A stretch of 64,000 nt of DNA from Leptonemataceae bacterium. Lineage in GTDB: Bacteria; Spirochaetota; Leptospiria; Leptospirales; Leptonemataceae. Position numbers and translations under genes: made by a program. Location of the stretch: positions 800,001 to 864,000 of the forward strand of contig OZ245742.1 in NCBI GenBank assembly GCA_965227295.1, given 5' to 3'. Below the pieces are notes generated by a model, which saw only the letters and a list, made by a program, of their open reading frames with translations, was not told where the DNA came from and did not search any database. This document shows, one piece after another, positions 3-45,286 of this stretch (its first letter is position 1; each line of letters starts with the position of its first letter).

Positions 3-1451
3 CAGTAAAAGAATCGCCGCGCACAAGAACGCGTAGTACGCGTAGTTCAAACCGAATCGCCGCATGCCCGGCAGGCCGCGCTCCACGAAAGAGCTGGCCC
101 GCAACGCTTCGAACAGAACTAGCAGCACAATCACCACGACACCGGTTTTACGATAAAAAACCTCCAGCGGGAAAATGTGCAGCGCGACCCGGTCTTCGGC
201 AAAAAGATGCGTGAGCACATACGCGGCGTCTTCGAAGCCCGGCGCCCGAAAGAAGACCCACGCCAGCACGGCGCAGTGAAAAACGAAAATCATCTTCAAG
301 CAAGCAACAGCCGTCGCCGCCCGGCTGCCCTCCGCGAAGAGCGGGCCGCCGTACACGCGCACCCACAAACCGCTCGCAATCCGCTCCAGAATCAAGAGCG
401 CGCCGTGAATACCGCCCCAGATCACGAAGTTCCAGCTTGCCCCGTGCCAGAGCCCGCTCACGACGAACACGATCATTAAGTTTACATAAACGCGCATTAG
501 TCCGGCCCGGGAACCGCCCAGAGGAATGTAGAGGTAGTCCCGAAACCAGGTGGACAGCGAAATGTGCCAGCGCCGCCAGAAGTCCGCGAAGCCCGTGCTG
601 AAGTACGGCGTGCGAAAGTTCGTCATAAGCCGCACGCCGAGAACGCGAGCCGCGCCGATGGCAATGTCCGAGTAACCGGAGAAGTCGCAATAAATCTGAA
701 ACGCGAAGAAGTAGGTCGCAACGATCAGCGGCCAGCCGGAAAACTCGCCGGCGTTGTTGTAGACCGGATCCACGTACATCGCCAGACGATCGGCCACCAC
801 GAGTTTCTTGAAGAAACCCCACAGCATCAGCTTGAGTCCGCTCACGGCCTCGTCGCGGTCGAAGAACCGCCGGGCCTGCAATTGCGGAATGAGATTCGCC
901 GGGCGTTCGATGGGCCCGGCCACAAGCTGCGGAAAAAACATGACGAACAGCGCGAGCATCTGCGGATCCTGCTCGGCATGCTGATCGCCGCGATAGACTT
1001 CGATCAAATAACCGGCGGACTGGAACGTATGGAACGACAACCCGATCGGCAGAATTAACTGCAGCGCCCAGGGTTCCACGGCGACACCGAAGAACTGCGC
1101 TACGGCGTCCACGTTTTCGTTGAAGAAGTTGAAGTATTTAAAGACAAACAGCACGCCGAAGTTCGCGATCAACGAAAGCACCAGTACAATGCGCGCGTTC
1201 TTCTTGCTGATGCCCGCGGCCGCCACGCCGTCGACGGCCGGGCCGGCGTGGCGGCGTTCCAGGTACAGCGCGGCCGCGTAATCCACGGCGATGGTCGCGA
1301 GCAAAATGAAAATGTAGTACCACACGAAGAACATGTAGAACACGCAGCTCGCGATCAAGAGCAACGTCTTCCGCCAGGCGTGGGGAATCGAGAAGTGCAG
1401 CAGGACGACGGCGGGGAAGAAGATCAGAAAGTGCCAGGAGTTGAATAGCAT
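3..1451 (-). CDS. MBOAT family O-acyltransferase (AlgI/DltB-like), 3' end runs off the window
   Basis: Not in the ORF track; read manually from ATG at 1451: MLFNSWHFLIFFPAVVLLHF...LPIGLSFHTFQS...YCDFSGYSDIA...FWRRWHISLSTWFRDYLYIPLGG, typical MBOAT motifs. Confidence 0.9.
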   Translation of the reverse strand, partial: MLFNSWHFLIFFPAVVLLHFSIPHAWRKTLLLIASCVFYMFFVWYYIFILLATIAVDYAAALYLERRHAGPAVDGVAAAGISKKNARIVLVLSLIANFGVLFVFKYFNFFNENVDAVAQFFGVAVEPWALQLILPIGLSFHTFQSAGYLIEVYRGDQHAEQDPQMLALFVMFFPQLVAGPIERPANLIPQLQARRFFDRDEAVSGLKLMLWGFFKKLVVADRLAMYVDPVYNNAGEFSGWPLIVATYFFAFQIYCDFSGYSDIAIGAARVLGVRLMTNFRTPYFSTGFADFWRRWHISLSTWFRDYLYIPLGGSRAGLMRVYVNLMIVFVVSGLWHGASWNFVIWGGIHGALLILERIASGLWVRVYGGPLFAEGSRAATAVACLKMIFVFHCAVLAWVFFRAPGFEDAAYVLTHLFAEDRVALHIFPLEVFYRKTGVVVIVLLVLFEALRASSFVERGLPGMRRFGLNYAYYAFLCAAILLL

Positions 1452-17495: not shown

Positions 17496-17714
17496 ATGCT
17501 CCAGAACATAGGCATCGATGGCGGCGATCTTGCCCGCGTCTTTCGCGCCCTCGCGAATCCGGCGCGTTTAAAAATTCTACGCATCCTCGGCGAAATCGAA
17601 GGCACGAAGTCCTGCTACTGCCTGAACTACGGTACCCTGCGCCAGTTTCGCGGCTGGATGAATACGTATCTTGCCGATCTCCCGGACGGCGACGACGATC
17701 CGCACTGCTGTTGA
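17496..17714 (+). pseudogene. ArsR/SmtB-family regulator with in-frame internal deletion of the HTH
   Basis: FRALANPARLKILRIL joins directly to GEIEGTKSCYCLN; the usual C.GE...SQ.T.S.HL segment is absent; ends in CC. Confidence 0.7.
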
Positions 17715-17734
17715 GCCGGGGCAGCTAACTTACA

Positions 17735-18367
17735 GTGAACGCATCCTTACGAGAGTATCTGAACGCCCGCGCCGCGGAGTTCGACAAGATTCCCGAGGAA
17801 CGCCGCTCGATTCTGGATCGCCTGGGCACATTCGCGCGCGAGCGTATTGCGGCCGGCGAAACGGCACAGTTGATCTTTATTTGCACGCACAACTCCCGGC
17901 GCAGTCACCTCGCCCAGGCCGCGGCGCTGTCCGCGGCGGAGTTCTCCGGATACAACCAGGTCGGCGCTACGCAAAACGTCGCGGCCTACTCCGGCGGCAC
18001 CGAAGCCACGGCGATGTTTCGTCGTTCCGTGGACGCACTGCGCGACGCGGGCTATCATATAACAGACGGTGACGGCGGCACCGATGAGAATCCGGTCTAC
18101 GTGATTGCCACGGGCGAGGACGACGCGGGCGTGCGTTTCTTTTCGAAGCGTTTTAATGACGCGGCGAACCCGCAAGGAGGCTTCGCCGCCATCATGACCT
18201 GTTCCCAGGCGGATGCCGAGTGCCCCTTCGTGCCCGGCGCCGCGGCGCGCATCAGTCTGCCGTACGAAGATCCCAAACTCTTCGACGGTACGCCGCGGGA
18301 GTTAGAGAAATACCAGGAACGCTGTCGGGATATTCATCGGGAGATTTTGTACGCGCTGCGAGTTTGA
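17735..18367 (+). CDS. LMW-PTP-fold arsenate reductase / protein-tyrosine-phosphatase-like protein
   Basis: FICTHNSRRS P-loop, SGGTE, TC..AD..CP, YEDP motifs; follows an ArsR relic. Confidence 0.85.
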   Translation: MNASLREYLNARAAEFDKIPEERRSILDRLGTFARERIAAGETAQLIFICTHNSRRSHLAQAAALSAAEFSGYNQVGATQNVAAYSGGTEATAMFRRSVDALRDAGYHITDGDGGTDENPVYVIATGEDDAGVRFFSKRFNDAANPQGGFAAIMTCSQADAECPFVPGAAARISLPYEDPKLFDGTPRELEKYQERCRDIHREILYALRV

Positions 18368-18374
18368 AGCATTA

Positions 18375-18408
18375 ACTCCGAAGACCGGGGCCCCTCGGTC
18401 CCCGGAGT
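18375..18408. repeat. Collapsed copy of the small inverted-repeat element (likely terminator-like hairpin)
   Basis: actccgaagaccggggcccctcggtccccggagt has the same ends as copies at 2958 and 40789; lies between convergent genes. Confidence 0.7.
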
Positions 18409-18416
18409 AATCATCT

Positions 18417-18971
18417 TCACCCCGGCAAATACATCGGCGCGGCTACTTTCTCGCGAACCTCTTTGCCGCAGAGTTGTTCCACTAACTCCAGCGCAAATTC
18501 GAACGCACTCCCCGGCCCGATGCTCGTAGTAATCTTTTCATGGCGCATGAGCCGGGCGTTCTGCACGTACTTGCCGCCCTGGCCGTCTTTCAACGTCGCC
18601 GGATGCAACACGAACGGAACGTCCCCGCTGACGATGCCGTGATTTCGCAGCACGTTCGGTGCCGCGCAAATGGCGCCGATGTAACGATCCTGGTCGCGCA
18701 TCTTTTGCAGGAGTTCCGTAACGACGGGATGCGCTTCCAGATTGCGCGCGCCCTCGGCGCCGCCGGGCAGGACGATCATGTCGAAGTCCTCGCCGGCAAC
18801 ATCGTCAATGAGCGCGTCCGCCACGTGTTTGGTTCCGCGGCTGGCAGTGATGGGTCCGGCATGCAGACCGGCGGCAATGACTTCGAGGTTCGCCCGGCGC
18901 AGGACGTCGATAATGATGATGCCCTCCATCTCTTCGAATCCGTCGGCGAGGGGGACGAGCACTCTCGGCAT
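18417..18971 (-). CDS. DJ-1/YajL/ThiJ family protein
   Basis: GFEEME, DVLRRA, VLPGG, AICAAP, GPGSA motifs. Confidence 0.93.
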   Translation of the reverse strand: MPRVLVPLADGFEEMEGIIIIDVLRRANLEVIAAGLHAGPITASRGTKHVADALIDDVAGEDFDMIVLPGGAEGARNLEAHPVVTELLQKMRDQDRYIGAICAAPNVLRNHGIVSGDVPFVLHPATLKDGQGGKYVQNARLMRHEKITTSIGPGSAFEFALELVEQLCGKEVREKVAAPMYLPG

Positions 18972-18998
18972 GTAAGTTCCTCCAATATAAAGTTAAGA

Positions 18999-20084
18999 TC
19001 AGGAGACGGGTTCTGCCACGTAGTCTTCCAGGTAGAAGATGCGCGTGTCTTCCCGTTTGCCGCGCAGTTTGTTCACGCGCAGGCGTTTTACCCTGGCATG
19101 CGCGCCCAGGGCGTCGCGGGTAGCACCGTCTATGAGTATATCGAGGTTCGCGCGCTTGGTCAACATTTCCAGGCGGCTGGCCACGTTCACCGGATCGCCC
19201 ACCACGGAGTACTCGATGTGCCGGACCGAGCCGATGTTGCCCGCGAAGACCCGACCCGTGGCGATGCCCATGGCCGCTCGCAACGGTTCCGTAAGGTACT
19301 CGGGGCGGACGTCGTTGTACGTGCTGAGGTACTCGCGGATCTGCAACGCGCAGCGAACGCAATTCGCAGCGTCCTCCGGCGAAGAGACCGGGCAACCGAA
19401 TGTCGCAAAAACACCGTCGCCGGTCATCTTGTTGACCGAGCCGTGATTGCCGTATACCAGGTCCATAATGTCCGTAAAAATCTCCGAAAGAAATGAGGAG
19501 AACTCTCGCGGCCCGAGGCTTTCGCCGATCCCGGTACTGTTTCGCAGATCGAAAAACATCAATGAAGCCGTGACGTTGGCGCCGGCCATATCCGCGTCGT
19601 CGTCGTTCAGAATTTTTTCGATGAGTTCGTCCGAGAAGTAACGGGCGAGCCGGTTGCGTTCGCGGGCCAGTTTATCGTTCTCCGCCTTCATGTACTGGCG
19701 GTAGTGCTTGAGCTCGATGAGGTTGCGCAGGCGAATGGCCATCTCCGCCAGATTGAAGGGTTTTTGAATGTACTCGTCCGCGCCGTGCCAGAGCGATTTG
19801 ATCTTCACCTTTTCGCTCTCATCGTCCGAGATGATCATGATCGCTGTTTCTTCGGGACGGCGGGCCTCCTTTACGCGATCGATGAGCTGAAGATTGTCCG
19901 GCCCGGGGTTCTCCATGCCCAGGAGCACGACGTCCGGACGCACATCGCGAACGAGCTCTTCGATCTGCTTCGCACTCGAACTGGTTTCAATGACGTAGCC
20001 GAGTTCGCGGACAGCCTGTTCCAGCAGCGCCAGGGTTTTCGTATCTTCATCCACGGCCAGCAGGCGATGGTTCTCGGTGCCCAT
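18999..20084 (-). CDS. Class III adenylate cyclase with N-terminal degenerate receiver domain
   Basis: FFDLRNST, NKMTGDG, GNIGS, EYSVVGDPVNVASR; receiver has LLG in place of LLD. Confidence 0.9.
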   Translation of the reverse strand: MGTENHRLLAVDEDTKTLALLEQAVRELGYVIETSSSAKQIEELVRDVRPDVVLLGMENPGPDNLQLIDRVKEARRPEETAIMIISDDESEKVKIKSLWHGADEYIQKPFNLAEMAIRLRNLIELKHYRQYMKAENDKLARERNRLARYFSDELIEKILNDDDADMAGANVTASLMFFDLRNSTGIGESLGPREFSSFLSEIFTDIMDLVYGNHGSVNKMTGDGVFATFGCPVSSPEDAANCVRCALQIREYLSTYNDVRPEYLTEPLRAAMGIATGRVFAGNIGSVRHIEYSVVGDPVNVASRLEMLTKRANLDILIDGATRDALGAHARVKRLRVNKLRGKREDTRIFYLEDYVAEPVS

Positions 20085-20149
20085 AGGCGACCAGAGTTGC
20101 AGCTCCAGGCGATGATTGTCTACAAAGAAAGAATGCGCCGATGCTAAGG

Positions 20150-22885
20150 CTACAGCGGCAGTTGAATCGAAAACTCGGTAAACCGTCCCGGGGCGAAGCT
20201 TGTGCGAATCTTACCGCCCAGGTCCTGAATCCCTTTTTTAATGATGTCCATGCCGACACCCCGGCCGGCGAGCTTATCCGATTCATCGGCCGTAGAAAGG
20301 CCTGGCATGTAGATGAGCCGGGCAATCTGCGCCTCGGACCAGGCGTTGATTTCGTCGGCGCTCCACCGGCCGGACTCCAGGGCCAGGCGCCGCAGCTTAT
20401 CGATGGCCAGGCCGCGACCGTCGTCCCGGATCGTAAGATTCAAGCGCCGCTGATCGTTGTCTTCGAGGATCTGCGCCGCGAGCTGAATGGTACCGCAGGC
20501 CGCCTTGGCCGCACCCACGCGCTCGTCCGGTGTTTCGATGCCGTGCGACAGGGAGTTGCGCACTAACTGCACCAGAATGTCCTTTAGCGGCTTACGGAAT
20601 TTCTGCGGAATCATTTCGGCTTCGAAAGCGGCGTGATCCAGGACGCACTCTTTGCCCAGCTCCGTGCTGAGTTTTTCCACGACTCCGGCGAGGCTCTTCA
20701 GGAAGGCTTCGCGGAAACCGCCGACATCCCGCCCGTCGCCCGCGGTGGCGCTGCTGTAATCGGTGAGGCGGCGACTCAGTCCGCCCAGTTCGTCCAGGAG
20801 TTCCTGCATGCGACTCATCATAAAAACCAGCGGCAAAAAATCCGTGCGGCCCAGTTCCGGATTGGCCTTCATTTCCGAGAGACGCTCCTCGAACTCGTGG
20901 GCCTGGTCCGCCACGAAATTCAGTTCCAGGAGTGACGCGTTGCCTTTGATCGTATGCATGGCCCGGTAGATCGCGTCGAGCTTATCGGGAAGGGATAGCG
21001 ACGGGTCGTCGGTACGCAGAATGGTGTTGATGTTTTTAACTTCGGCATTGGAGTCTTCGATGAACTCCGCCAGCGTGGCGGGCTCCACGTGCAGCACGCT
21101 GAAGAGGCGCTCCATTTGTTGTTTGTTCTTTTCTTCGTTGGCCCGCAACTGCCGGGTGAGCATCACCTGTTCGGTTACGTCTTTGACGGCGCCCATCAAG
21201 TGCGTGATCGCCTTGCCGTCGTAGATGCGGCTGAACTTGCACTGTAAGATTTTCGTCGTCGCGCCGCGCACGGTATCGTCGAAGTGAATCTCGAACTCCT
21301 GCATGGGATTCAGGTCGCGCACCCACACGACGTCCATGTCCGGCTTGAGCATAAGTTCCAGGTAATCCTGAATAGCCTGCTGTTCTTCCGGAGTCACCAG
21401 GCGACCGATCATGGTGCCGAAATTTTCCTGGGCCAGGCTCTCGCGCTGGAAGATGCGTTCCAGGGCCTTACTGTACTGCGCCCCGATGATCATATCCGGC
21501 CCCATGAGAAACAGGCCCTCGTCCACGTTTTCAAAGATGGCGTCGCGTTCCTTGAGCGTGGCCTCGAGACTCGACATGACCGTGTTGTAGCGATACGCGA
21601 TCTGGCCGACCTCGGTGAACGGCTCCACGGGAACACGAATGCTCAGATCCCCGCTCCGCGCCTGAGCGTCCATGGCCTGAAACAAATCGATGAGTTCGGT
21701 AGTGGCCCCGTGCTCGGCGACGTTCAGGCCGATCTTCTCGTCCTCGGCACTAACTCTCAGCGGGATTATCTTATCGATCGTCCACAACATGAGGAACCCG
21801 ATGCCGAAGGCCCACACCGCACACGTACCCACACCGAGGGCCTGCGCGCCGAGCTGCTCCCACATGCCAAGGCCGGTACCGAGAATTTCCGGATCGCCGA
21901 AGAGCGCGACCGCGAGCGTCCCCCAGATACCGGCAGCGGCGTGCACCGGGAAGGCGCCCACCGCGTCGTCGATGTGCAGGCGCTCCAGTAACTCTTCAAC
22001 GGCGAACATTACCAGACCGCCGATGCTGCCGATGAGCACGGCGTACGGAGCGGTGACCGCATGACAACTGGCCGTGATGGCGACGAGCCCGGCCAGGCTG
22101 CCGTTAATAATGAACGTAACCTCGGCAACACGTTTGATGGACCAGCCGACGAGCAATGCGGCGACGCCGCCGGCGGCCCCGGCGAGCACGGTGTTGGTAA
22201 TGATGCGCGCAACGCTCGCGTCCATGGCCAGGGTCGAGCCGCCGTTGAAACCGAACCAACCGAACCACAGAAGCAACGAGCCGAGAATCGCGTTGGGAAT
22301 GTTGGAACCGGCAATGTCCCGGGTGGTACCGTCGTCGCCGAAACGTCCGCCCCGGGGTCCGAGTTGAATGACCGCGGCGAGTCCGACCCAGCCGCCGACA
22401 CTATGCACGACGGTGGAACCGGCGAAGTCCACAAAGCCTTCGCCGCCGAGCCAGCCGCCGTCACCCCAGACCCAGTGACCGAAGAGCGGATAGATCAGAC
22501 CGGAGACGACCAGGGTGGCGATGAGATAACTGGAGAAGCGCATGCGTTCTGCCGCGGCGCCGGAGACGATGGTGGCGGCCGTGGCACAGAACATGGCCTG
22601 GAACAAAAAGAACGAGGTATGCCACATCTCGCCGGCGGTATCGAGGAGAAAGGAGTCCGTTCCAACCCAGCCCTTGTAGGTGGCACCGAACATGAGAGCG
22701 AAACCGAAAGCCCAGAAGAGCAGAATCGAGAAGCCGAGGTCGCTCATGTTCTTCATGGCGACGTTGATGCTGTTTTTCGAACGCGTGAAACCGGATTCGA
22801 GCATGGCGAAGCCCGGTTGCATGAGGAATACGAGTCCGGATGCGAGCAGCACCCAGAGAATGTCAGTCAGGCTTTTCTCCGGCAT
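20150..22885 (-). CDS. Ammonium transporter fused to HAMP-like, PAS-like, HPT and CheA-type HATPase domains
   Basis: Amt motifs FQAMF, DFAGSTVVH, WFGWFGFNGGS, DDAVGAFPVH; then MHTIKGNA (HPT), QLVRNSLSHGIE, DDGRG, GRGVGMD; no CheW domain. Confidence 0.92.
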   Translation of the reverse strand: MPEKSLTDILWVLLASGLVFLMQPGFAMLESGFTRSKNSINVAMKNMSDLGFSILLFWAFGFALMFGATYKGWVGTDSFLLDTAGEMWHTSFFLFQAMFCATAATIVSGAAAERMRFSSYLIATLVVSGLIYPLFGHWVWGDGGWLGGEGFVDFAGSTVVHSVGGWVGLAAVIQLGPRGGRFGDDGTTRDIAGSNIPNAILGSLLLWFGWFGFNGGSTLAMDASVARIITNTVLAGAAGGVAALLVGWSIKRVAEVTFIINGSLAGLVAITASCHAVTAPYAVLIGSIGGLVMFAVEELLERLHIDDAVGAFPVHAAAGIWGTLAVALFGDPEILGTGLGMWEQLGAQALGVGTCAVWAFGIGFLMLWTIDKIIPLRVSAEDEKIGLNVAEHGATTELIDLFQAMDAQARSGDLSIRVPVEPFTEVGQIAYRYNTVMSSLEATLKERDAIFENVDEGLFLMGPDMIIGAQYSKALERIFQRESLAQENFGTMIGRLVTPEEQQAIQDYLELMLKPDMDVVWVRDLNPMQEFEIHFDDTVRGATTKILQCKFSRIYDGKAITHLMGAVKDVTEQVMLTRQLRANEEKNKQQMERLFSVLHVEPATLAEFIEDSNAEVKNINTILRTDDPSLSLPDKLDAIYRAMHTIKGNASLLELNFVADQAHEFEERLSEMKANPELGRTDFLPLVFMMSRMQELLDELGGLSRRLTDYSSATAGDGRDVGGFREAFLKSLAGVVEKLSTELGKECVLDHAAFEAEMIPQKFRKPLKDILVQLVRNSLSHGIETPDERVGAAKAACGTIQLAAQILEDNDQRRLNLTIRDDGRGLAIDKLRRLALESGRWSADEINAWSEAQIARLIYMPGLSTADESDKLAGRGVGMDIIKKGIQDLGGKIRTSFAPGRFTEFSIQLPL

Positions 22886-22936
22886 GGGATGGTCCTGTGG
22901 TTGTAGAGTGGCGGCTTAAGAGATAGCGAATGGAAC

Positions 22937-23380
22937 TTACTCGATGCCGGCGACGATGAACGACTTGTGCCCCTTCCAGATGACGGGAATGACGTAGGTC
23001 GGAATACGGACCGGCAGATTGATGCTGGGTTTGCCCACGATGACGATGGGCACCGAGATCATGAAGTTGCTGCCGAAAGACTTGCGCGCGTTGCCGGAGA
23101 TGGTGTTGGCGATTTCACCGACCATGTCCTTCATGGCGTCTTCGGTGGCGTTGCCTTCGCCCAGTACCACTTCCACGATAGCCGTGAGCATGTCCCTGCC
23201 CGTGGTGAAGTAGACGCACCCCTTGCGTTCGCCGGAAATCCCGATGGCCCCGGTATAATCGAGGATGACTTCTTCTTCGCCCTTGAGATACGGGAGGCCG
23301 ATCTCCGGCTCAGAGCCGCCGACCTCACTGAAGTAGTTCAAGGTACCGTTAACAAAAACCTGTACGTCCTGTTCCTGCAT
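22937..23380 (-). CDS. cheX: Chemotaxis phosphatase CheX
   Basis: DYTGAIGISG..KG, GEIANTISGNA (ExxN), ISVP motifs. Confidence 0.92.
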   Translation of the reverse strand: MQEQDVQVFVNGTLNYFSEVGGSEPEIGLPYLKGEEEVILDYTGAIGISGERKGCVYFTTGRDMLTAIVEVVLGEGNATEDAMKDMVGEIANTISGNARKSFGSNFMISVPIVIVGKPSINLPVRIPTYVIPVIWKGHKSFIVAGIE

Positions 23381-23381
23381 C

Positions 23382-23744
23382 TCAGGCGCCCTCCATCAGC
23401 CGGTCGAAAGCTTCTTTGAGTTTGTCTTCGGTGAAGGGTTTGCCGACGAAACCCTTTGCGCCGAGCTTCAATGCTTTGAGGGCCGTGGCCTGATCGCTCA
23501 GGGCGCTGATCACCAGGATGCGCGCGGAACCGTCGATCTTCAGCATCTCTTCGAGAGCGCTGAGACCGTCCATCTCGGGCATGGTGATATCCATGGTCAC
23601 GAGTTCGGGCTTTTTCTCCTGAAACATTTCGATGGCCGTCCGCCCGTCGCCGGCTTCGCCGACCACTTCCAGCTTGTACTGTTCGAGATATTTCTGGATC
23701 GCTTTGCGGATGATGCTGCTATCATCCACGATGAGTATCTTCAT
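23382..23744 (-). CDS. cheY: CheY-like single-domain response regulator
   Basis: ILIVDDS, TMDITMPEMDG, KPF; 120 aa. Confidence 0.88.
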   Translation of the reverse strand: MKILIVDDSSIIRKAIQKYLEQYKLEVVGEAGDGRTAIEMFQEKKPELVTMDITMPEMDGLSALEEMLKIDGSARILVISALSDQATALKALKLGAKGFVGKPFTEDKLKEAFDRLMEGA

Positions 23745-24066
23745 GAGCCACCTGCGCCGTCGGGTTCCATTGCAAATGTTATACCAGGGTTAAATCGGCC
23801 TATTCTGATGATATCAAGCCGAAAAAACAGGCAGGTTGTTAAAAAAACGTGAGGGGTGCTGTTTCCACGCTCAGGTTCTGGGCGGAGAATTCGCGATAGC
23901 TGAGTCGCAAACCGACGTCCGGGTCGAGGCGGACAATGTTAACAAAACGACTTACCACAACTCCCGCGAGCCGTAGCATAAAAATCCCCGCCAGGGTTTC
24001 GCAACTTACTTCATGTTTCCCACGGCAAACGCCGCGAAGTTCGATGCTACGAAACCCCGGGCTCGT

Positions 24067-25080
24067 TTATAACAACTCCGCAATCTGCACGGCATTCAAC
24101 GCGGCGCCCTTGAGAATCTGATCCCCGCAACAGAACAGATCGATCTCGCGGCCGTCTTTAGAGTTCGCGGCCTTGCGCAGCCGGCCCACGAACACCTCGT
24201 CCACGCCGGAGGATTCCAGAGGCATGGGAAAGTAGTTCTTCTCACGATCGTCGATGATCTTCACCCCGGGCATCTTCGCGAGGGCGTCTTGAATGGCACC
24301 GAGGTCCGCCGGGTTTTCCAGTTCCAGGTGCACGGACTCAGCGTGCGCGCGAAACGTGCCGATGCGAATGCACGTCGGAGAAACGCCGATGTCCTCGGTG
24401 TGGAGGATCTTGTGCGTCTCTTTGATCATCTTCGTCTCTTCCTGGTTGTAGCCGGTATCCGGGTCCATCGGTGAATTGTGCGAGAATGCGTTAAACGCGA
24501 TGGGAAACGGAAACGCCTCGGGTTTGATCTCCTTGCCGTCGAGGTAGTCCCGCGCCTGGTCTTCGAGTTCCTGCATGGCCGCGGCGCCGGCGCCGGAGGC
24601 CGCCTGGTACGTCGAGACGACGATGTTCTTCACGGGATTGATGCGATGGATCGGAAACACCGCCATGAGCATGATGATGGTCGAACAGTTGGGATTCGCG
24701 ATGATTCCCTTATGCAACTTCACGTCCTCGGGGTTGATTTCCGGAACGACGAGCGGCGTGTTCGGGTCCATGCGAAACGCCGACGAGTTATCGACGACGA
24801 CGGTACCGGCTTCGACGGCGAGCGGGCCGAACTTCTTGCTTATGGAACCGCCGGCGCTGAAGAGCGCAATGTCGATGCCGGCATCTTTGAAAGACGTCTC
24901 CGTGAGTTCCTGCACGGTGTACTCGGTGCCGCGAAACGTCTGCTTCTTCCCGGCGGAGCGCGCGCTGGAGAGCAACGTCAGTTTGCCCAGGGGAAAGTTG
25001 CGTTTTTCGAGGACCTGCAGGAGCTCCACGCCGACAGCGCCGGTGGAGCCCACGATGGCTACGTGCGGAGAATCTTTCAT
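24067..25080 (-). CDS. asd: Aspartate-semialdehyde dehydrogenase
   Basis: GSTGAVG, VDNSSAFRM, IANPNCST, STYQAASGAG, KGAALNAVQIAE motifs. Confidence 0.97.
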   Translation of the reverse strand: MKDSPHVAIVGSTGAVGVELLQVLEKRNFPLGKLTLLSSARSAGKKQTFRGTEYTVQELTETSFKDAGIDIALFSAGGSISKKFGPLAVEAGTVVVDNSSAFRMDPNTPLVVPEINPEDVKLHKGIIANPNCSTIIMLMAVFPIHRINPVKNIVVSTYQAASGAGAAAMQELEDQARDYLDGKEIKPEAFPFPIAFNAFSHNSPMDPDTGYNQEETKMIKETHKILHTEDIGVSPTCIRIGTFRAHAESVHLELENPADLGAIQDALAKMPGVKIIDDREKNYFPMPLESSGVDEVFVGRLRKAANSKDGREIDLFCCGDQILKGAALNAVQIAELL

Positions 25081-43124: not shown

Positions 43125-45286
43125 CAGTTTTCCGAGATCTTAAAATCTTCCACTGTCCGTGCAAGAAATTCTGCCTGGTCGGCGACGGTCTTGATGGATC
43201 GCGCCATTTCCTGGGAGTTATTCGAAGAGTTCTGTGCGCTTTCGCTGATGCCGGCAATCGTGTTCATCATCTCTTCCGCCGTGGAACTCTGCTGCTGCTC
43301 CGACGATACGATCTGCTTCGTCATTTCGGTCATGCGCTGCATGGACTCCCGAATGGTTTCGTTTAACTTCGCCTGATTTTTGGCCAGGCTTTCCAGCACC
43401 TCGGCCAATTCGCTGACCTGAGACGCCTCGGTGCGCATGTGCTTCACCGCCTCACCCAGGGATTCGACCTTCTCTTCGCCGGAGCTGACGCTGGAGAGGG
43501 CCTCATGGATCAGTTCTTCAATCTCCCCCGTCGCCTCGGAAGAGCGTTCCGCGAGACGCGAGACCTCATCGGCGACCACGGCAAATCCGCGACCGGCCTC
43601 CCCCGCCCGGGCCGCTTCAATGGCAGCATTCAGAGAAAGCAAGTTAGTGCGATCGGAGATGTCGTTGATGACGCTCAAGATCTCGCTGATCTTCTCGCTG
43701 GAGGACACGATGCGCCGAATGCCCTCCACTGCTTCCTGGGACGACGCCTGGGCCTGCCAGGCCTGGTGCACCGAGGACTCCGAGCGATTACGGATCTCGT
43801 GCGCCTTAATCGTGAGATTCTCGATCGACGCGTTCAAATCTTTTTCGAGGACCGTCAGGATATTCGAAATCAAAGCTGACTGCTCCGAAATTTTGCCGGA
43901 TATCTCCTCGATGGATGCGCTCATTTCCTCCATGGAAGCCGAGGCCTCCTCGGTGGCAGAGGCCTGGTCCTGGGCGCCGTCGGCGAAACCTTCCGCCGAA
44001 CGGGTGAGTGCCTCGTTTTGATCCTGCACCCGGACGGCCACGCCGCGGATCGTATTGATCTTCGCCGAGAGCTGTACAAAAAACGAACTGAGTGTCAACG
44101 CCAGCCGACCGATCTCGTCGAGAGACTCGGCACCGGCCCGGTGACTGAGATCACCGCGCTCCACGCGCTCGGTCATACGCATGAGCCCGTTGATGCTGCG
44201 GGCAATCGTATTCGCAAAGAAGAACGAAAGACTCGCCGCCACGATCAACCCACCCACGGCGAAGATGCCGATCCACATCCACAACGAGTTCAGTCGCTGG
44301 AGCTCAGCCGCCAGATCCCGCACCGAACAGAGGAAGTACTCGCTGCCCCGCGAACAGACGATGATGCGTTCCAGCTCGGTATCGTAGTAGGATCCCCCCG
44401 AAACGTTTTCAAAGACCTTGCGAAAGTGATCGCCGGCATCCGCCTGGCGATGATGCTGAAACAGTTTCGGTCCCGTACTCAGAATCAGATCGTTTTCGTT
44501 AGCATCGTACAGATAAAAGTTACGCTGATATACCGTTTTGGCCTGCCTGAGCCGGAGCTTCATGTTGCTTTCGAACTCATCGTCCAGGAAGGTTTCCGCA
44601 AAGATGTGTTTGTGAATATGTTCCGTGCTGTACTCGATCTCTCGAATGGTTTCGTTGACGCCGGTGTAGTAAGCCATGCCGCCCAGCCAGATGGTATAGC
44701 CGAGGGGAAAGAGCAAAAAGGCCGGCACAATCTTCGACCGAAGGGACCACTGGAATCCGCGGACCTCGTGACCAGCGTCGGCTATGCGCCGGGACAGGCT
44801 TGCCGCCAGGGGACCGAGAAAGGCCGAGAAGCCCGCGTAAACATTGAGGGGGACGGCGATCAACCCGGCGCAAGCACCGAGGACGATGGTTCCCATGGTA
44901 AGCGGGCCGAAGTGCTGCAACTTCCAGAAAACGTAAACCAACGCCGACGCCGCCAGCCACACGACGATGATCACGACGGTCATGCGAACCGGCAACGAGT
45001 AGGATCTCCGGACGGCCCGGTCCAGCTCCGCGGCTTCCACATCTTCGCGCTGGTCCAGCCGCCGTACACAGCTTCGAAGCGGAGCTGACACGAGAAAGTA
45101 ATAAACCAACGCCGCCACGGCGCCGACGAACCAGATTCCGATCACCACCGGCACAAGTACGGGAAAACGCGAAGTCGGATAGTTGCCCAAATAGAACAGG
45201 GCCACTGCCCAGACACCGTTCCACAGGAACCAGTTTGCAAGATAACAGAGCAGCAGTGCCGTGCCGGGGTAACGAAGAATCTCCAT
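43124..45286 (-). CDS. Methyl-accepting chemotaxis protein with extra N-terminal TM helices
   Basis: HAMP (GDLS..DEIG) and [29 protein letters not shown] hairpin tip. Confidence 0.95.

Follow-up and report, generated by a model that had tools for sequence, protein, structure and literature searches.

In a spirochaete-type bacterium, an ammonium-receptor membrane domain is joined to a reduced chemotaxis-type kinase and encoded beside its own CheY and CheX (Table 1). The fusion, which lies in a 64,000-nucleotide stretch of DNA (the window), probably acts as an ammonium-receptor kinase that signals to the adjacent CheY, with CheX resetting the signal.

Layout and integrity of the locus

The genes are tightly packed: cheY and cheX are separated by 1 nt, cheX and the kinase gene by 51 nt, and the kinase gene and a downstream cyclase gene by 65 nt. 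A reading of the letters alone (the sequence-only reading) had placed cheY and cheX directly upstream of the kinase gene, and both are indeed found there on the same strand. The spacer between asd and cheY is likely the operon promoter region; a dispersed genomic repeat sits in it, and a promoter scan of this spacer gave a result no better than chance. The operon holds neither an MCP gene nor a soluble chemoreceptor, and the nearest of the 20 MCP genes in the genome is ~20 kb away.

Table 1. Features of the locus, with positions in the window and residues of the fusion protein
Feature	Positions	Strand	Basis
Amt-fused CheA-type (class III-like) sensor histidine kinase	20150..22885 incl. stop	-	single open frame, 911 aa, ATG start
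Amt domain, residues 10-395, predicted ammonium-receptor type	21701..22858	-	Pfam Ammonium_transp 2e-122
HAMP-like two-helix linker, residues 396-453	21527..21700	-	alignment to Sd-Amt1 and AF2 helices
PAS-like alpha/beta domain, residues 457-569	21179..21517	-	AF2 topology, block pLDDT ~80-91
Hpt (P1-like) helical bundle, residues 602-714	20744..21082	-	Pfam Hpt 605-700, 2e-10; AF2 helices
CheA P4-type ATP-binding kinase domain, residues 719-911	20153..20731	-	Pfam HATPase_c 769-911, 4.5e-12
cheX, CheY-P phosphatase family	22937..23380	-	147 aa, Pfam CheX 5.2e-19, above cut-off
cheY-like single-domain response regulator	23382..23744	-	120 aa, Pfam Response_reg 1.4e-30
Downstream receiver-like + class III adenylate/guanylate cyclase gene	18999..20084	-	361 aa
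asd-cheY spacer, 322 nt	23745..24066	.	ORF map

Could amt and a kinase gene have been wrongly joined, by an assembly artefact or in a decaying gene? Misassembly, the objection that the sequence-only reading had raised beforehand against itself, was not seen: a 20,846-nt Logan contig, independently assembled and probably from the source sample, spans positions 18300-23919 without a single difference or gap. The 911-codon frame stays open, full-length homologues with 42-49% identity are present in 12 other genomes, and the Amt+Hpt+HATPase_c architecture recurs in 49 of 120 database clusters, among the matches listed. No point in favor of a wrong joining was found, and such an origin is hardly credible.

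From the receptor domain to the transmitter

Among solved proteins, the Amt domain is closest to Sd-Amt1 from Shewanella denitrificans (PDB 8qj3/8qj4/8qpf), which it resembles over residues 9-444, i.e., the Amt domain plus the HAMP-like linker (E 2e-117 with 8qj3), followed by Ks-Amt5 (6eu6; 1e-96), Af-Amt1 (1e-59) and E. coli AmtB (~1e-40); judged by its sequence, it belongs to the Sd-Amt1/Ks-Amt5 ammonium-receptor type. The full Amt domain claimed earlier, with a Phe gate, a Trp/Ser site and twin histidines, is borne out residue by residue in a phmmer alignment to Sd-Amt1, which maps the gate to Phe99/Phe213, the vestibule to Trp140/Ser217, and the histidines to His161 (VVH) and His315 (PVH). 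The N1/N2 site comprises Gln23, Phe26, Glu30, Lys45, Asn46, Asp49, Thr105, Ser108 and Tyr120; the ligands described for Sd-Amt1 in excerpts of its report are all kept (Glu30, Asn46, Asp49, Thr105 and Ser108), as are Gln23, the Lys45/Tyr120 switch pair, and Asn261, which occupies the position of the Sd-Amt1 Asn-269 that narrows the cytoplasmic exit (PMC11152129). The published strict N1/N2 regular expression fails on this domain because Leu50 stands where it has Phe/Thr; the Sd-Amt1 counterpart, Phe49, is not a ligand according to the same excerpts (PMC11152129).

Does this domain still transport ammonium? As a transceptor, it would remain a working transporter, and the kinase would either report flux or stand in for GlnK-type control of uptake. 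Every transport-pore residue is intact, no glnK adjoins the fusion gene, and the N1/N2 signature also occurs in some proteins that do transport, plant AMT1 among them (PMC11152129, in part), but Asn261 sits at the exit-narrowing position and both characterized fused relatives, Ks-Amt5 and Sd-Amt1, bind NH4+ rather than translocate it, as described in the available parts of the two reports (PMC5764959, PMC11152129). Furthermore, two other, stand-alone Amt genes are present in the genome, one of them followed by two glnK genes (C1:2121007-2123082); uptake would therefore be independent of the fusion, an argument likewise made in the available text on Sd-Amt1 (PMC11152129). A transceptor is thus improbable, and the Amt domain is better read as a receptor.

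Two segments separate this receptor from the transmitter. A HAMP-like linker had been proposed, and residues 396-442 do align to Sd-Amt1 404-450, a region termed HAMP by its authors in the text available (PMC11152129), with two helices (401-411 and 425-453) in the AF2 model; however, there is no match to Pfam HAMP. Similarly, the proposed PAS-like region has the alpha/beta fold in the AF2 model, followed by a long helix (571-598), but the PAS_9 match (E 0.033) is below its cut-off. Gly457, Phe459, Ser472, Pro527 and Asp569 are invariant in an alignment of 56 family members, and the PAS-like domain could serve as an entry for a second, cytoplasmic signal.

The transmitter resembles a CheA pared down to two domains. 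The phospho-accepting His644 (MHTIKG; codon 20954-20956) is on the second helix of the Hpt bundle, as in P1 of CheA, and the P4-type domain has a N box (Asn777/His781/Gly782/Glu784), a G1 box (Asp821/Gly823) and a G2 box (Gly874/Gly876/Gly878); His644 and all three boxes are invariant among the 56 aligned family members. Matches to NCBIfam CheA models are confined to residues 734-911, the P4 part, which is 26-30% identical to solved CheA P4 chains (E 1e-20 to 3e-26) and superimposes on 1i58/8pf2 in Foldseek with a TM (target) of 0.81-0.88 and an rmsd of 2-3 Å. These matches, together with those of the Pfam Hpt and HATPase_c models, uphold the Hpt and CheA-type ATPase of the sequence-only reading, as well as its C-terminus lacking CheW/P5: neither CheW nor H-kinase_dim matches residues 400-911 even at E<=10. 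The label "CheA-like kinase" fares less well. P2 and P3 are also missing, and there is no room for P3 because the Hpt bundle ends at ~714 and P4 begins at ~719. The protein is therefore not a CheA by the four-core-domain definition; in the available parts of a survey of CheAs, CheW is present in 100%, always alongside H-kinase_dim, and there is no input domain, whereas the fusion carries its own sensor (PMC10782961).

Partners, proposed signaling path and known systems

The partners are conserved along with the kinase. Among 300 sampled genomes of the phylum, 12 besides the source genome carry a full-length kinase homologue, and the cheY-cheX-kinase triad is present at all 12 of these loci. 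Where the same type of transmitter follows other sensors, CheY and CheX are adjacent in five of the six loci examined, including a second cassette in the same genome. The CheY-like protein has Asp7/Asp8, the phospho-acceptor Asp52, Ser80 and Lys102 (Asp52 and Lys102 are invariant among 12 cassette CheYs), and among solved structures it is most similar to CheY proteins (6er7, 2.9e-32; Thermotoga maritima CheY, 1e-30); a CheY tree does not separate it as a motor or non-motor type. CheX aligns to solved CheX (3h4y/3hm4; 1e-13), including Glu89-x-x-Asn92 within GEIANTISG, an ExxN element that we take to be the active-site motif. The earlier suggestion of a self-contained receptor-kinase working apart from an MCP/CheW array fits these data: the triad is universal at the homologous loci, and the operon has no MCP.

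How might the signal travel? The Amt module should assemble as a membrane trimer and would bind NH4+ at its internal N1/N2 site; the ensuing conformational change would pass through the HAMP-like helix pair and the PAS-like domain to the transmitter, which would work with P1 (Hpt, His644) and P4 of CheA alone. P4 would most likely phosphorylate an Hpt within the trimer, either in the same chain or in an adjacent one; the AF2 model (pLDDT 85.1, pTM 0.46) leaves the inter-domain geometry uncertain, and phosphorylation in cis is therefore a guess. The co-transcribed CheY-like protein would then receive the phosphoryl group on Asp52 and lose it again through CheX, giving a fast, self-resetting signal that dispenses with MCP, CheW, CheR and CheB. 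The transmitter has no dimerization domain, and phosphorylation within a chain or trimer would sidestep the conflict between trimer and dimer that has been raised for Sd-Amt1.

Sd-Amt1 likewise has a cytoplasmic transducer fused C-terminally, but this is a GGDEF diguanylate cyclase needing dimerization (PMC11152129, in part) in place of the PAS-like, Hpt and CheA-type ATPase modules, and the fusion, unlike Sd-Amt1, has its own CheY and CheX. Ks-Amt5 (Ca. Kuenenia stuttgartiensis) also combines a receptor-type Amt with a histidine kinase, for which the available text reports ammonium-dependent autophosphorylation; its kinase, however, is a classical DHp+CA (class I) enzyme lacking HAMP, with a response regulator that this text leaves unidentified, whereas here the phospho-His is on an Hpt bundle paired with a CheA-type ATPase and the likely partners are products of adjacent genes (PMC5764959). 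CheA (class II; P1-P2-P3-P4-P5; PDB 1b3q, 1i58, 6s1k) shares the P1-like Hpt, the P4 fold and, presumably, CheY and CheX as partners.

The design as a whole matches another class. Class III histidine kinases (HKIII) were reportedly described by Adebali, Petukh, Reznik, Tishkov, Upadhyay and Zhulin (J Bacteriol 2017) as having their own sensory domains, an Hpt and a CheA-like kinase domain, with no dimerization domain and no CheW, and as working with a single-domain response regulator and CheX; for their output, type IV pilus-based motility was reportedly proposed, with PilT as the marker behind it. The 911-aa fusion, in which each of these design features was found, presumably belongs to this class; bypassing the array is therefore a known principle, not a new one. 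The differences are that sensing falls to an Amt ammonium-receptor domain, that the operon has no soluble chemoreceptor, and that PilT falls under its cut-off. A literature search, in agreement with the earlier claim, found no paper on this fusion and no characterized Amt-CheA-type fusion; its parts are of known kinds.

The output of the pathway

What does CheY-P act on? This is the weakest part of the explanation. The flagellar switch, where CheY-P would bias swimming in ammonium gradients, is the leading but tentative candidate, short of an even chance, and ammonium taxis, as suggested by the sequence-only reading, may follow from it. FliM is above the cut-off in all 13 cassette genomes (the source and the 12 others) and PilT (TIGR01420) in none, a new observation that is permissive only, as these are related, non-independent genomes of one phylum; the window CheY has bona fide CheYs as its nearest relatives. 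Pilus-based, PilT-dependent motility would suit a kinase with the other class III features (own sensor, Hpt and CheA-type ATPase, no dimerization domain, single-domain response regulator, CheX), yet the best TIGR01420 scores in the cassette genomes, 164-196 bits, fall short of the 319-bit cut-off and come from ORFs of 494-585 aa resembling secretion or assembly ATPases, while 5 of 14 control genomes contain a passing match; this output is disfavored and very improbable.

A non-motor target of CheY-P, e.g., the neighboring adenylate cyclase, ranks next. The same receptor kinase would then control a cytoplasmic enzyme, directly or through CheY-P: here the cyclase, encoded just downstream on the same strand, and in other lineages a PAS-cyclase or a PP2C phosphatase. 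A cyclase follows the triad in 4/11 evaluable loci (window, L123, L121, L120) and SpoIIE/PP2C in 2/11 (L119, L127), six in total, which hints at non-motor outputs; in the phylum, the Amt domains most closely related to this one are joined either to SpoIIE (L103) or to a PAS domain and an RsbW-like ATPase (L102). The cyclase (Pfam Response_reg 6e-15, Guanylate_cyc 4e-18), which the sequence-only reading had overlooked, looks intact in FFDL, KMTGDG and GDPVNVASRLE, which we assume to be its catalytic motifs. However, its receiver has Gly56 at the phospho-acceptor position (LLGMENP vs TMDITMP in the alignment), a new feature that rules out canonical phosphotransfer to this protein. The downstream gene is also unrelated or on the opposite strand in 5/11 loci, whereas CheY and CheX are always there, and the N-terminal domains of the cyclases vary (pseudo-receiver, PAS, none), so that they share no evident docking module. 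Finally, a dedicated CheX suggests that the signal must be reset on a second scale, as is typical of motility control and in line with CheX in spirochaetes. A non-motility output is accordingly possible but doubtful; if true, ammonium would set cAMP levels or the state of a partner switch. With the preferred receptor kinase, whichever its target, ammonium could be signaled without chemoreceptors, by a receptor domain joined to a kinase with CheY and CheX encoded alongside.

The fused receptor and its operon

The sequence-only reading had described an ammonium transporter (Amt) domain joined to a CheA-like kinase that ends without CheW, and had named misassembly as one way in which this could fail. 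The fusion is real: a Logan contig of 20,846 nt, which was independently built, probably from the source sample, and so tests the assembler but not the sample, spans positions 18300-23919 with 0 differences and 0 gaps, and full-length homologues occur in other genomes. The domain assignments hold as well: Pfam and NCBIfam models recognise Amt, Hpt and CheA-type ATPase, and none matches CheW. Two genes that the earlier reading had missed, for a receiver-cyclase and a DJ-1/PfpI protein, lie downstream of the kinase. Scans of positions 17600-24400 returned 2 promoter-like sites (vs 2.2 expected by chance) and 5 terminator-like sites (vs 7.0). The 322-nt spacer between asd and cheY holds a dispersed intergenic repeat (23889-24038): searched against the genome (blastn-short), the spacer gives 164 HSPs, with up to ~128 copies over roughly 23895-23975, and the Logan contigs of both sequencing runs end there, summed contig depth going from ~216 to ~5700.

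Genes around the fused kinase (window coordinates) and parts of its transmitter (kinase residues, AF2 model)
Feature	Position	Strand	Remarks
DJ-1/PfpI gene			27 nt beyond cyclase gene, downstream
Receiver + class III cyclase gene, 361 aa	18999..20084	same as kinase	65 nt downstream of kinase
Kinase gene	20150..22885	-	single open frame, 911 codons, ATG start
cheX, 147 aa	22937..23380	-	upstream of kinase, 51-nt gap
cheY-like receiver, 120 aa	23382..23744	-	upstream of cheX, 1-nt gap
asd			322 nt upstream of cheY
Two helices	residues 401-411, 425-453		block pLDDT 67-77; aligned to Sd-Amt1 region named HAMP by its authors
PAS-like alpha/beta domain	residues 457-569		beta2-alpha-beta3 topology
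Long helix	residues 571-598
Hpt helical bundle	residues 602-714		His644 on second helix
First P4 helix	residues about 719-742
ATPase	up to residue 911		protein ends with P4

Residues 10-395 of the kinase are an Ammonium_transp domain (Pfam, E 2e-122). Among solved structures searched by sequence, the best relative of the whole protein is Sd-Amt1 (8qj3/8qpf; E 2e-117 over residues 9-444), the diguanylate cyclase fusion of Shewanella denitrificans, and the next is Ks-Amt5 (6eu6; E 1e-96), the histidine kinase fusion of Candidatus Kuenenia stuttgartiensis; Af-Amt1 follows at E 1e-59 and E. coli AmtB at E about 1e-40. Alignment to Sd-Amt1 places the Phe gate at residues 99/213, the vestibule pair at Trp140/Ser217 and the twin His at 161/315. 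The N1/N2 ligands of Sd-Amt1 (Glu29, Asn45, Asp48, Thr104 and Ser107, plus Gln22; PMC11152129, available text), transferred through a phmmer alignment and then checked residue by residue, are all present: Gln22/Glu29/Asn45/Asp48/Thr104/Ser107 correspond to Gln23/Glu30/Asn46/Asp49/Thr105/Ser108. The switch pair Lys44/Tyr119 likewise becomes Lys45/Tyr120, the access residue Phe25 becomes Phe26, and Asn269, which narrows the cytoplasmic exit of Sd-Amt1 (PMC11152129, available text), becomes Asn261. The literal signature of the ammonium-receptor subclass, QX6EX15NX2D[F/T]X54-60TX2[S/T] in the same source, fails at the [F/T] position only, where the kinase has Leu50; the Sd-Amt1 residue at this position, Phe49, is no ligand (PMC11152129). 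Among 39 Amt-bearing homologues the position is Leu in 19, Phe in 3, Ala in 2 and Met in 2; in the remaining 13 the relaxed pattern is unmatched.

Uptake is separately provided for, since the genome holds two more stand-alone Amt genes, one of them a classical amt followed by two P-II (glnK) genes (contig positions 2121007-2123082); the available text on Sd-Amt1 argues in the same way (PMC11152129). The other, at 870943-872163, lies ~7 kb beyond the window end and has no P-II neighbour. The nearest relatives of the Amt domain in the phylum, compared over the Amt part and linker, are found at two loci of other genomes, L103 (787-2925, minus strand; 57% identity) and L102 (589-2859, minus strand; 62%). 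At L103 the Amt is fused to SpoIIE/PP2C, in a same-order family of 45 genomes with up to three copies per genome; at L102 it is fused to PAS and an RsbW-like HATPase_c_2. As these transducers differ from each other and from that of the kinase, the same receptor is coupled to at least three outputs.

A transmitter built of CheA parts

Residues 400-911 were aligned with 55 homologues (56 rows) and then folded, giving an AF2 model with mean pLDDT 85.1 and pTM 0.46. In its front half the HAMP-like region has no Pfam HAMP match, the PAS_9 match to the PAS-like region is weak (E 0.033, 14.9 bits vs a cut-off of 27), and a whole-chain Foldseek search matched PAS-kinase proteins with poor rmsd. The rear half is recognised by Pfam as Hpt (residues 605-700, E 2e-10) and HATPase_c (residues 769-911, E 4.5e-12). 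NCBIfam CheA models cover residues 734-911 only, the P4 part (8e-43 and 9e-32), and no class I (classical) kinase model does better than 5e-5. The ATPase superposes on CheA P4 (1i58, 8pf2 and others; Foldseek) with TM 0.81-0.88, rmsd 2-3 A and 26-30% identity. His644, the N box (Asn777/His781/Gly782/Glu784), G1 (Asp821/Gly823) and G2 (Gly874/Gly876/Gly878) are invariant in 56/56 sequences.

If the kinase is built of CheA parts, is it a CheA? Like CheA, it has an Hpt with a phospho-His (His644) and a CheA-type HATPase_c. A survey of CheAs reports that each has Hpt, H-kinase_dim, HATPase_c and CheW and that none has an input domain (Berry, Andrianova and Zhulin, PMC10782961, available text); the kinase has neither the dimerisation domain H-kinase_dim (P3) nor the CheW-like P5 and carries Amt as an input domain, and, since three of the survey's features fail, it is not a CheA. 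In residues 400-911 neither H-kinase_dim nor CheW is matched even at E<=10. Because P3 can escape HMMER detection (PMC10782961, available text), the weight falls on structure: in the AF2 model ~5 residues separate the end of the Hpt bundle (~714) from the first P4 helix (~719), a gap that, as modelled, is too short to hold the P3 dimerisation hairpin. On a transmitter tree of 56 rows the Amt label takes 5 changes on the best tree, of which well-supported branches force only 1.

Distribution and class III kinship

A word-indexed search with residues 400-911 found 1957 proteins at E<=1e-3 among 8000 candidates scored. The sequence-only reading had called for an architecture search for Ammonium_transp, Hpt and HATPase_c, and 49 of the 120 matches listed (the best 120 of 1957) carry this combination; their organism-level names are all spirochaete (Leptospirales, Spirochaetales, Spirochaeta, Treponema), and one row reads 'bacterium'. 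The other matches listed place HAMP, Reg_prop/Y_Y_Y, GAF, PAS, REC, PilJ or 7TMR-DISM before the same transmitter. The PAS-like and Hpt part alone (residues 446-715), searched exhaustively, matches 2569 representatives at E<=1e-3, of which 1188 reach E<=1e-10 and 376 reach E<=1e-30. One database protein of 4858 aa (P0127) matches this part in 25 separate stretches and is apparently a giant tandem array of the module.

The Amt-transmitter fusion is widespread in spirochaetes. Full-length homologues of the kinase, at 42-49% identity, occur in 12 of 300 sampled genomes of the phylum (two loci are cut by contig ends), and 12/12 of these loci have a CheX gene and a CheY-like gene immediately upstream, with gene order conserved. 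A contig scan with the whole kinase was swamped by conserved Amt peptides and is uninformative on distribution outside the phylum: none of the 80 loci kept (L009-L088) has the transmitter or CheX (phmmer). The transmitter also adjoins CheY and CheX when it stands behind other sensors, at 4/5 loci in other genomes, the fifth lying on a 3.4-kb contig that reaches only 969 nt upstream, and at 5/6 when the own genome's second cassette is counted. This second cassette (contig positions 2969415-2982371; L131:3415-16371) encodes a REC protein of 147 aa, a CheX of 158 aa and two tandem ~2000-aa proteins, each with the order Pkinase (Ser/Thr), AAA_16 (STAND-like), GAF, Hpt and CheA-type HATPase_c.

The class III histidine kinases that Adebali and colleagues reportedly defined in 2017 are said to have their own sensors, no dimerisation domain, and a single-domain regulator with CheX, sometimes with a soluble chemoreceptor; pilT is reportedly present in all class III genomes, and a role in type IV pilus motility is said to have been proposed. 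Set against this definition, the kinase is alike in having its own sensor, Hpt and CheA-like ATPase with neither dimerisation domain nor CheW, and in the single-domain receiver and CheX encoded alongside (in the window, at 12/12 Amt-type loci and at 5/6 other-sensor loci). It differs in pilT: the PilT model TIGR01420 passes in 0/13 cassette genomes (the own genome and the 12 others with the triad), in which the best scores are 164-196 bits vs a cut-off of 319, from ORFs of 494-585 aa; it passes in 5/14 control genomes. FliM passes its cut-off in 13/13 cassette genomes, which are kin, so that both counts are permissive and not statistical. The kinase is thus a variant joining two known kinds, the fused ammonium receptors and the class III kinases. 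The earlier reading was right about an array-independent design but overlooked this class III precedent, and the ammonium taxis that it suggested is conjectural.

What is the receptor's own precedent? To our knowledge, studies of fused ammonium receptors are confined to two proteins, in which the transducer is a classical kinase and a diguanylate cyclase respectively. In each of them the sensor is a trimer and has to drive a transducer whose working form is the dimer. The Sd-Amt1 authors term this mismatch a symmetry break (PMC11152129, available text). In the kinase, unlike Sd-Amt1 and Ks-Amt5, the same type of receptor is joined to a kinase without a dimerisation domain, and the genes for CheY and CheX, the likely substrate and the likely reset enzyme, lie beside it. 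CheA, Hpt and chemotaxis go unmentioned in the available texts of PMC11152129, PMC5764959 and a 2023 Amt review, and the main-text literature searched describes no Amt-CheA-type or Amt-class III fusion, in keeping with the earlier statement that none is characterised; the architecture Amt+Hpt+HATPase_c may figure in supplementary tables.

A proposed path from ammonium to output

The CheY-like protein is a single receiver with the acidic pocket Asp7/Asp8, the phospho-acceptor Asp52, Ser80 and Lys102, and its top solved matches are CheYs. CheX scores 68.6 bits against Pfam CheX (cut-off 27), and its Glu89-x-x-Asn92 aligns with that of solved CheX; this ExxN we take to be the active-site motif of the CheC/CheX fold. 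The downstream receiver-cyclase has Gly56 where CheY has Asp52 and 8 other cassette CheYs have an invariant Asp, which, judged from the sequence, rules it out as a second phospho-acceptor; a role as a binding partner is still conceivable.

A mechanism that we consider likely, and the most likely one, starts with NH4+ at N1/N2: its occupancy would be transmitted to P4 by way of the HAMP-like and PAS-like parts and would control the phosphorylation of His644 by P4; from His644 the phosphoryl group would move on to the neighbouring CheY, at Asp52, and CheX, through Glu89-x-x-Asn92, would reset CheY-P. Because it lacks a dimerisation domain, the transmitter could in principle act chain by chain or among the chains of the Amt trimer, and the symmetry break of Sd-Amt1 may be avoided here; the pTM of the model is low, which makes it silent on per-chain versus in-trimer working.

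Where would the signal go? The flagellar switch is a tentative candidate, put forward because of the closeness of the cassette CheY to bona fide CheYs, a dedicated fast phosphatase, the presence of flagella and the absence of PilT. A CheY tree of 24 rows has long branches, only 3 of them starred, and does not distinguish the motor type of the cassette CheY. FliM1 of the own genome has an N-terminus of the LSQDEIDALL type; a complex prediction for CheY with the first 45 residues of FliM1, run with controls absent, scored 0.02 vs a mark of 0.32 and speaks neither for nor against. The three FliM paralogues map to contig positions 4065632-4068379 and 679474-680343: two adjoin, one with the LSQDEIDALL-type N-terminus and the other with the variant ISREELENLL, and the third is shorter and has no motif. 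A cyclase, PP2C or other enzyme as the output is somewhat unlikely; in its favour are recurrent downstream neighbours. Of 11 evaluable loci, the window included, 4 have a class III cyclase at this place and 2 have SpoIIE/PP2C; at the other 5 the downstream genes are unrelated or on the opposite strand. A further share of the likelihood falls to no named target. The N-domains of the four cyclases are pseudo-REC, PAS, PAS-PAS or none recognised.

The boldest reading, which we hold to be unlikely, takes the cassette as an array-free chemotaxis input, in which a trimeric receptor with three dimerisation-free CheA-type transmitters would act through a dedicated CheY on the flagellar switch, giving ammonium taxis without MCP, CheW or methylation adaptation, the response being timed by CheX and perhaps also by the two-ion N1/N2 site. 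The genome also encodes four canonical CheAs that bear CheW, besides 20 MCP genes and the three FliM paralogues, and none of the 20 MCP genes lies within ~20 kb of the kinase operon. The window's only MCP signalling domain (43322-43783, minus strand) sits in a 724-aa open frame ~20 kb away and is unlinked to the operon. A 1163-aa open frame that encodes a canonical CheA (contig positions 2934899-2936692) also has a weak CheX-like match (23.9 bits), which fits the CheA-CheC/CheX fusions reported for Leptospirae (PMC10782961, available text).

With a receptor joined to a dimerisation-free kinase and a likely CheY substrate and CheX next door, the kinase is a clean system in which to ask by what route an Amt trimer controls a kinase, whether the action of class III kinases is in cis, and what CheW-less 'mini-chemosensory' units control. 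We know of no functional proposal for class III kinases other than pilus motility. The absence of PilT from 13/13 cassette genomes calls that proposal into question and opens a flagellar or cAMP output to direct test; if the array-free reading were true, class III kinases would feed sensory signals directly into flagellar motors, in a phylum without PilT, contradicting the pilus role reportedly proposed for them.
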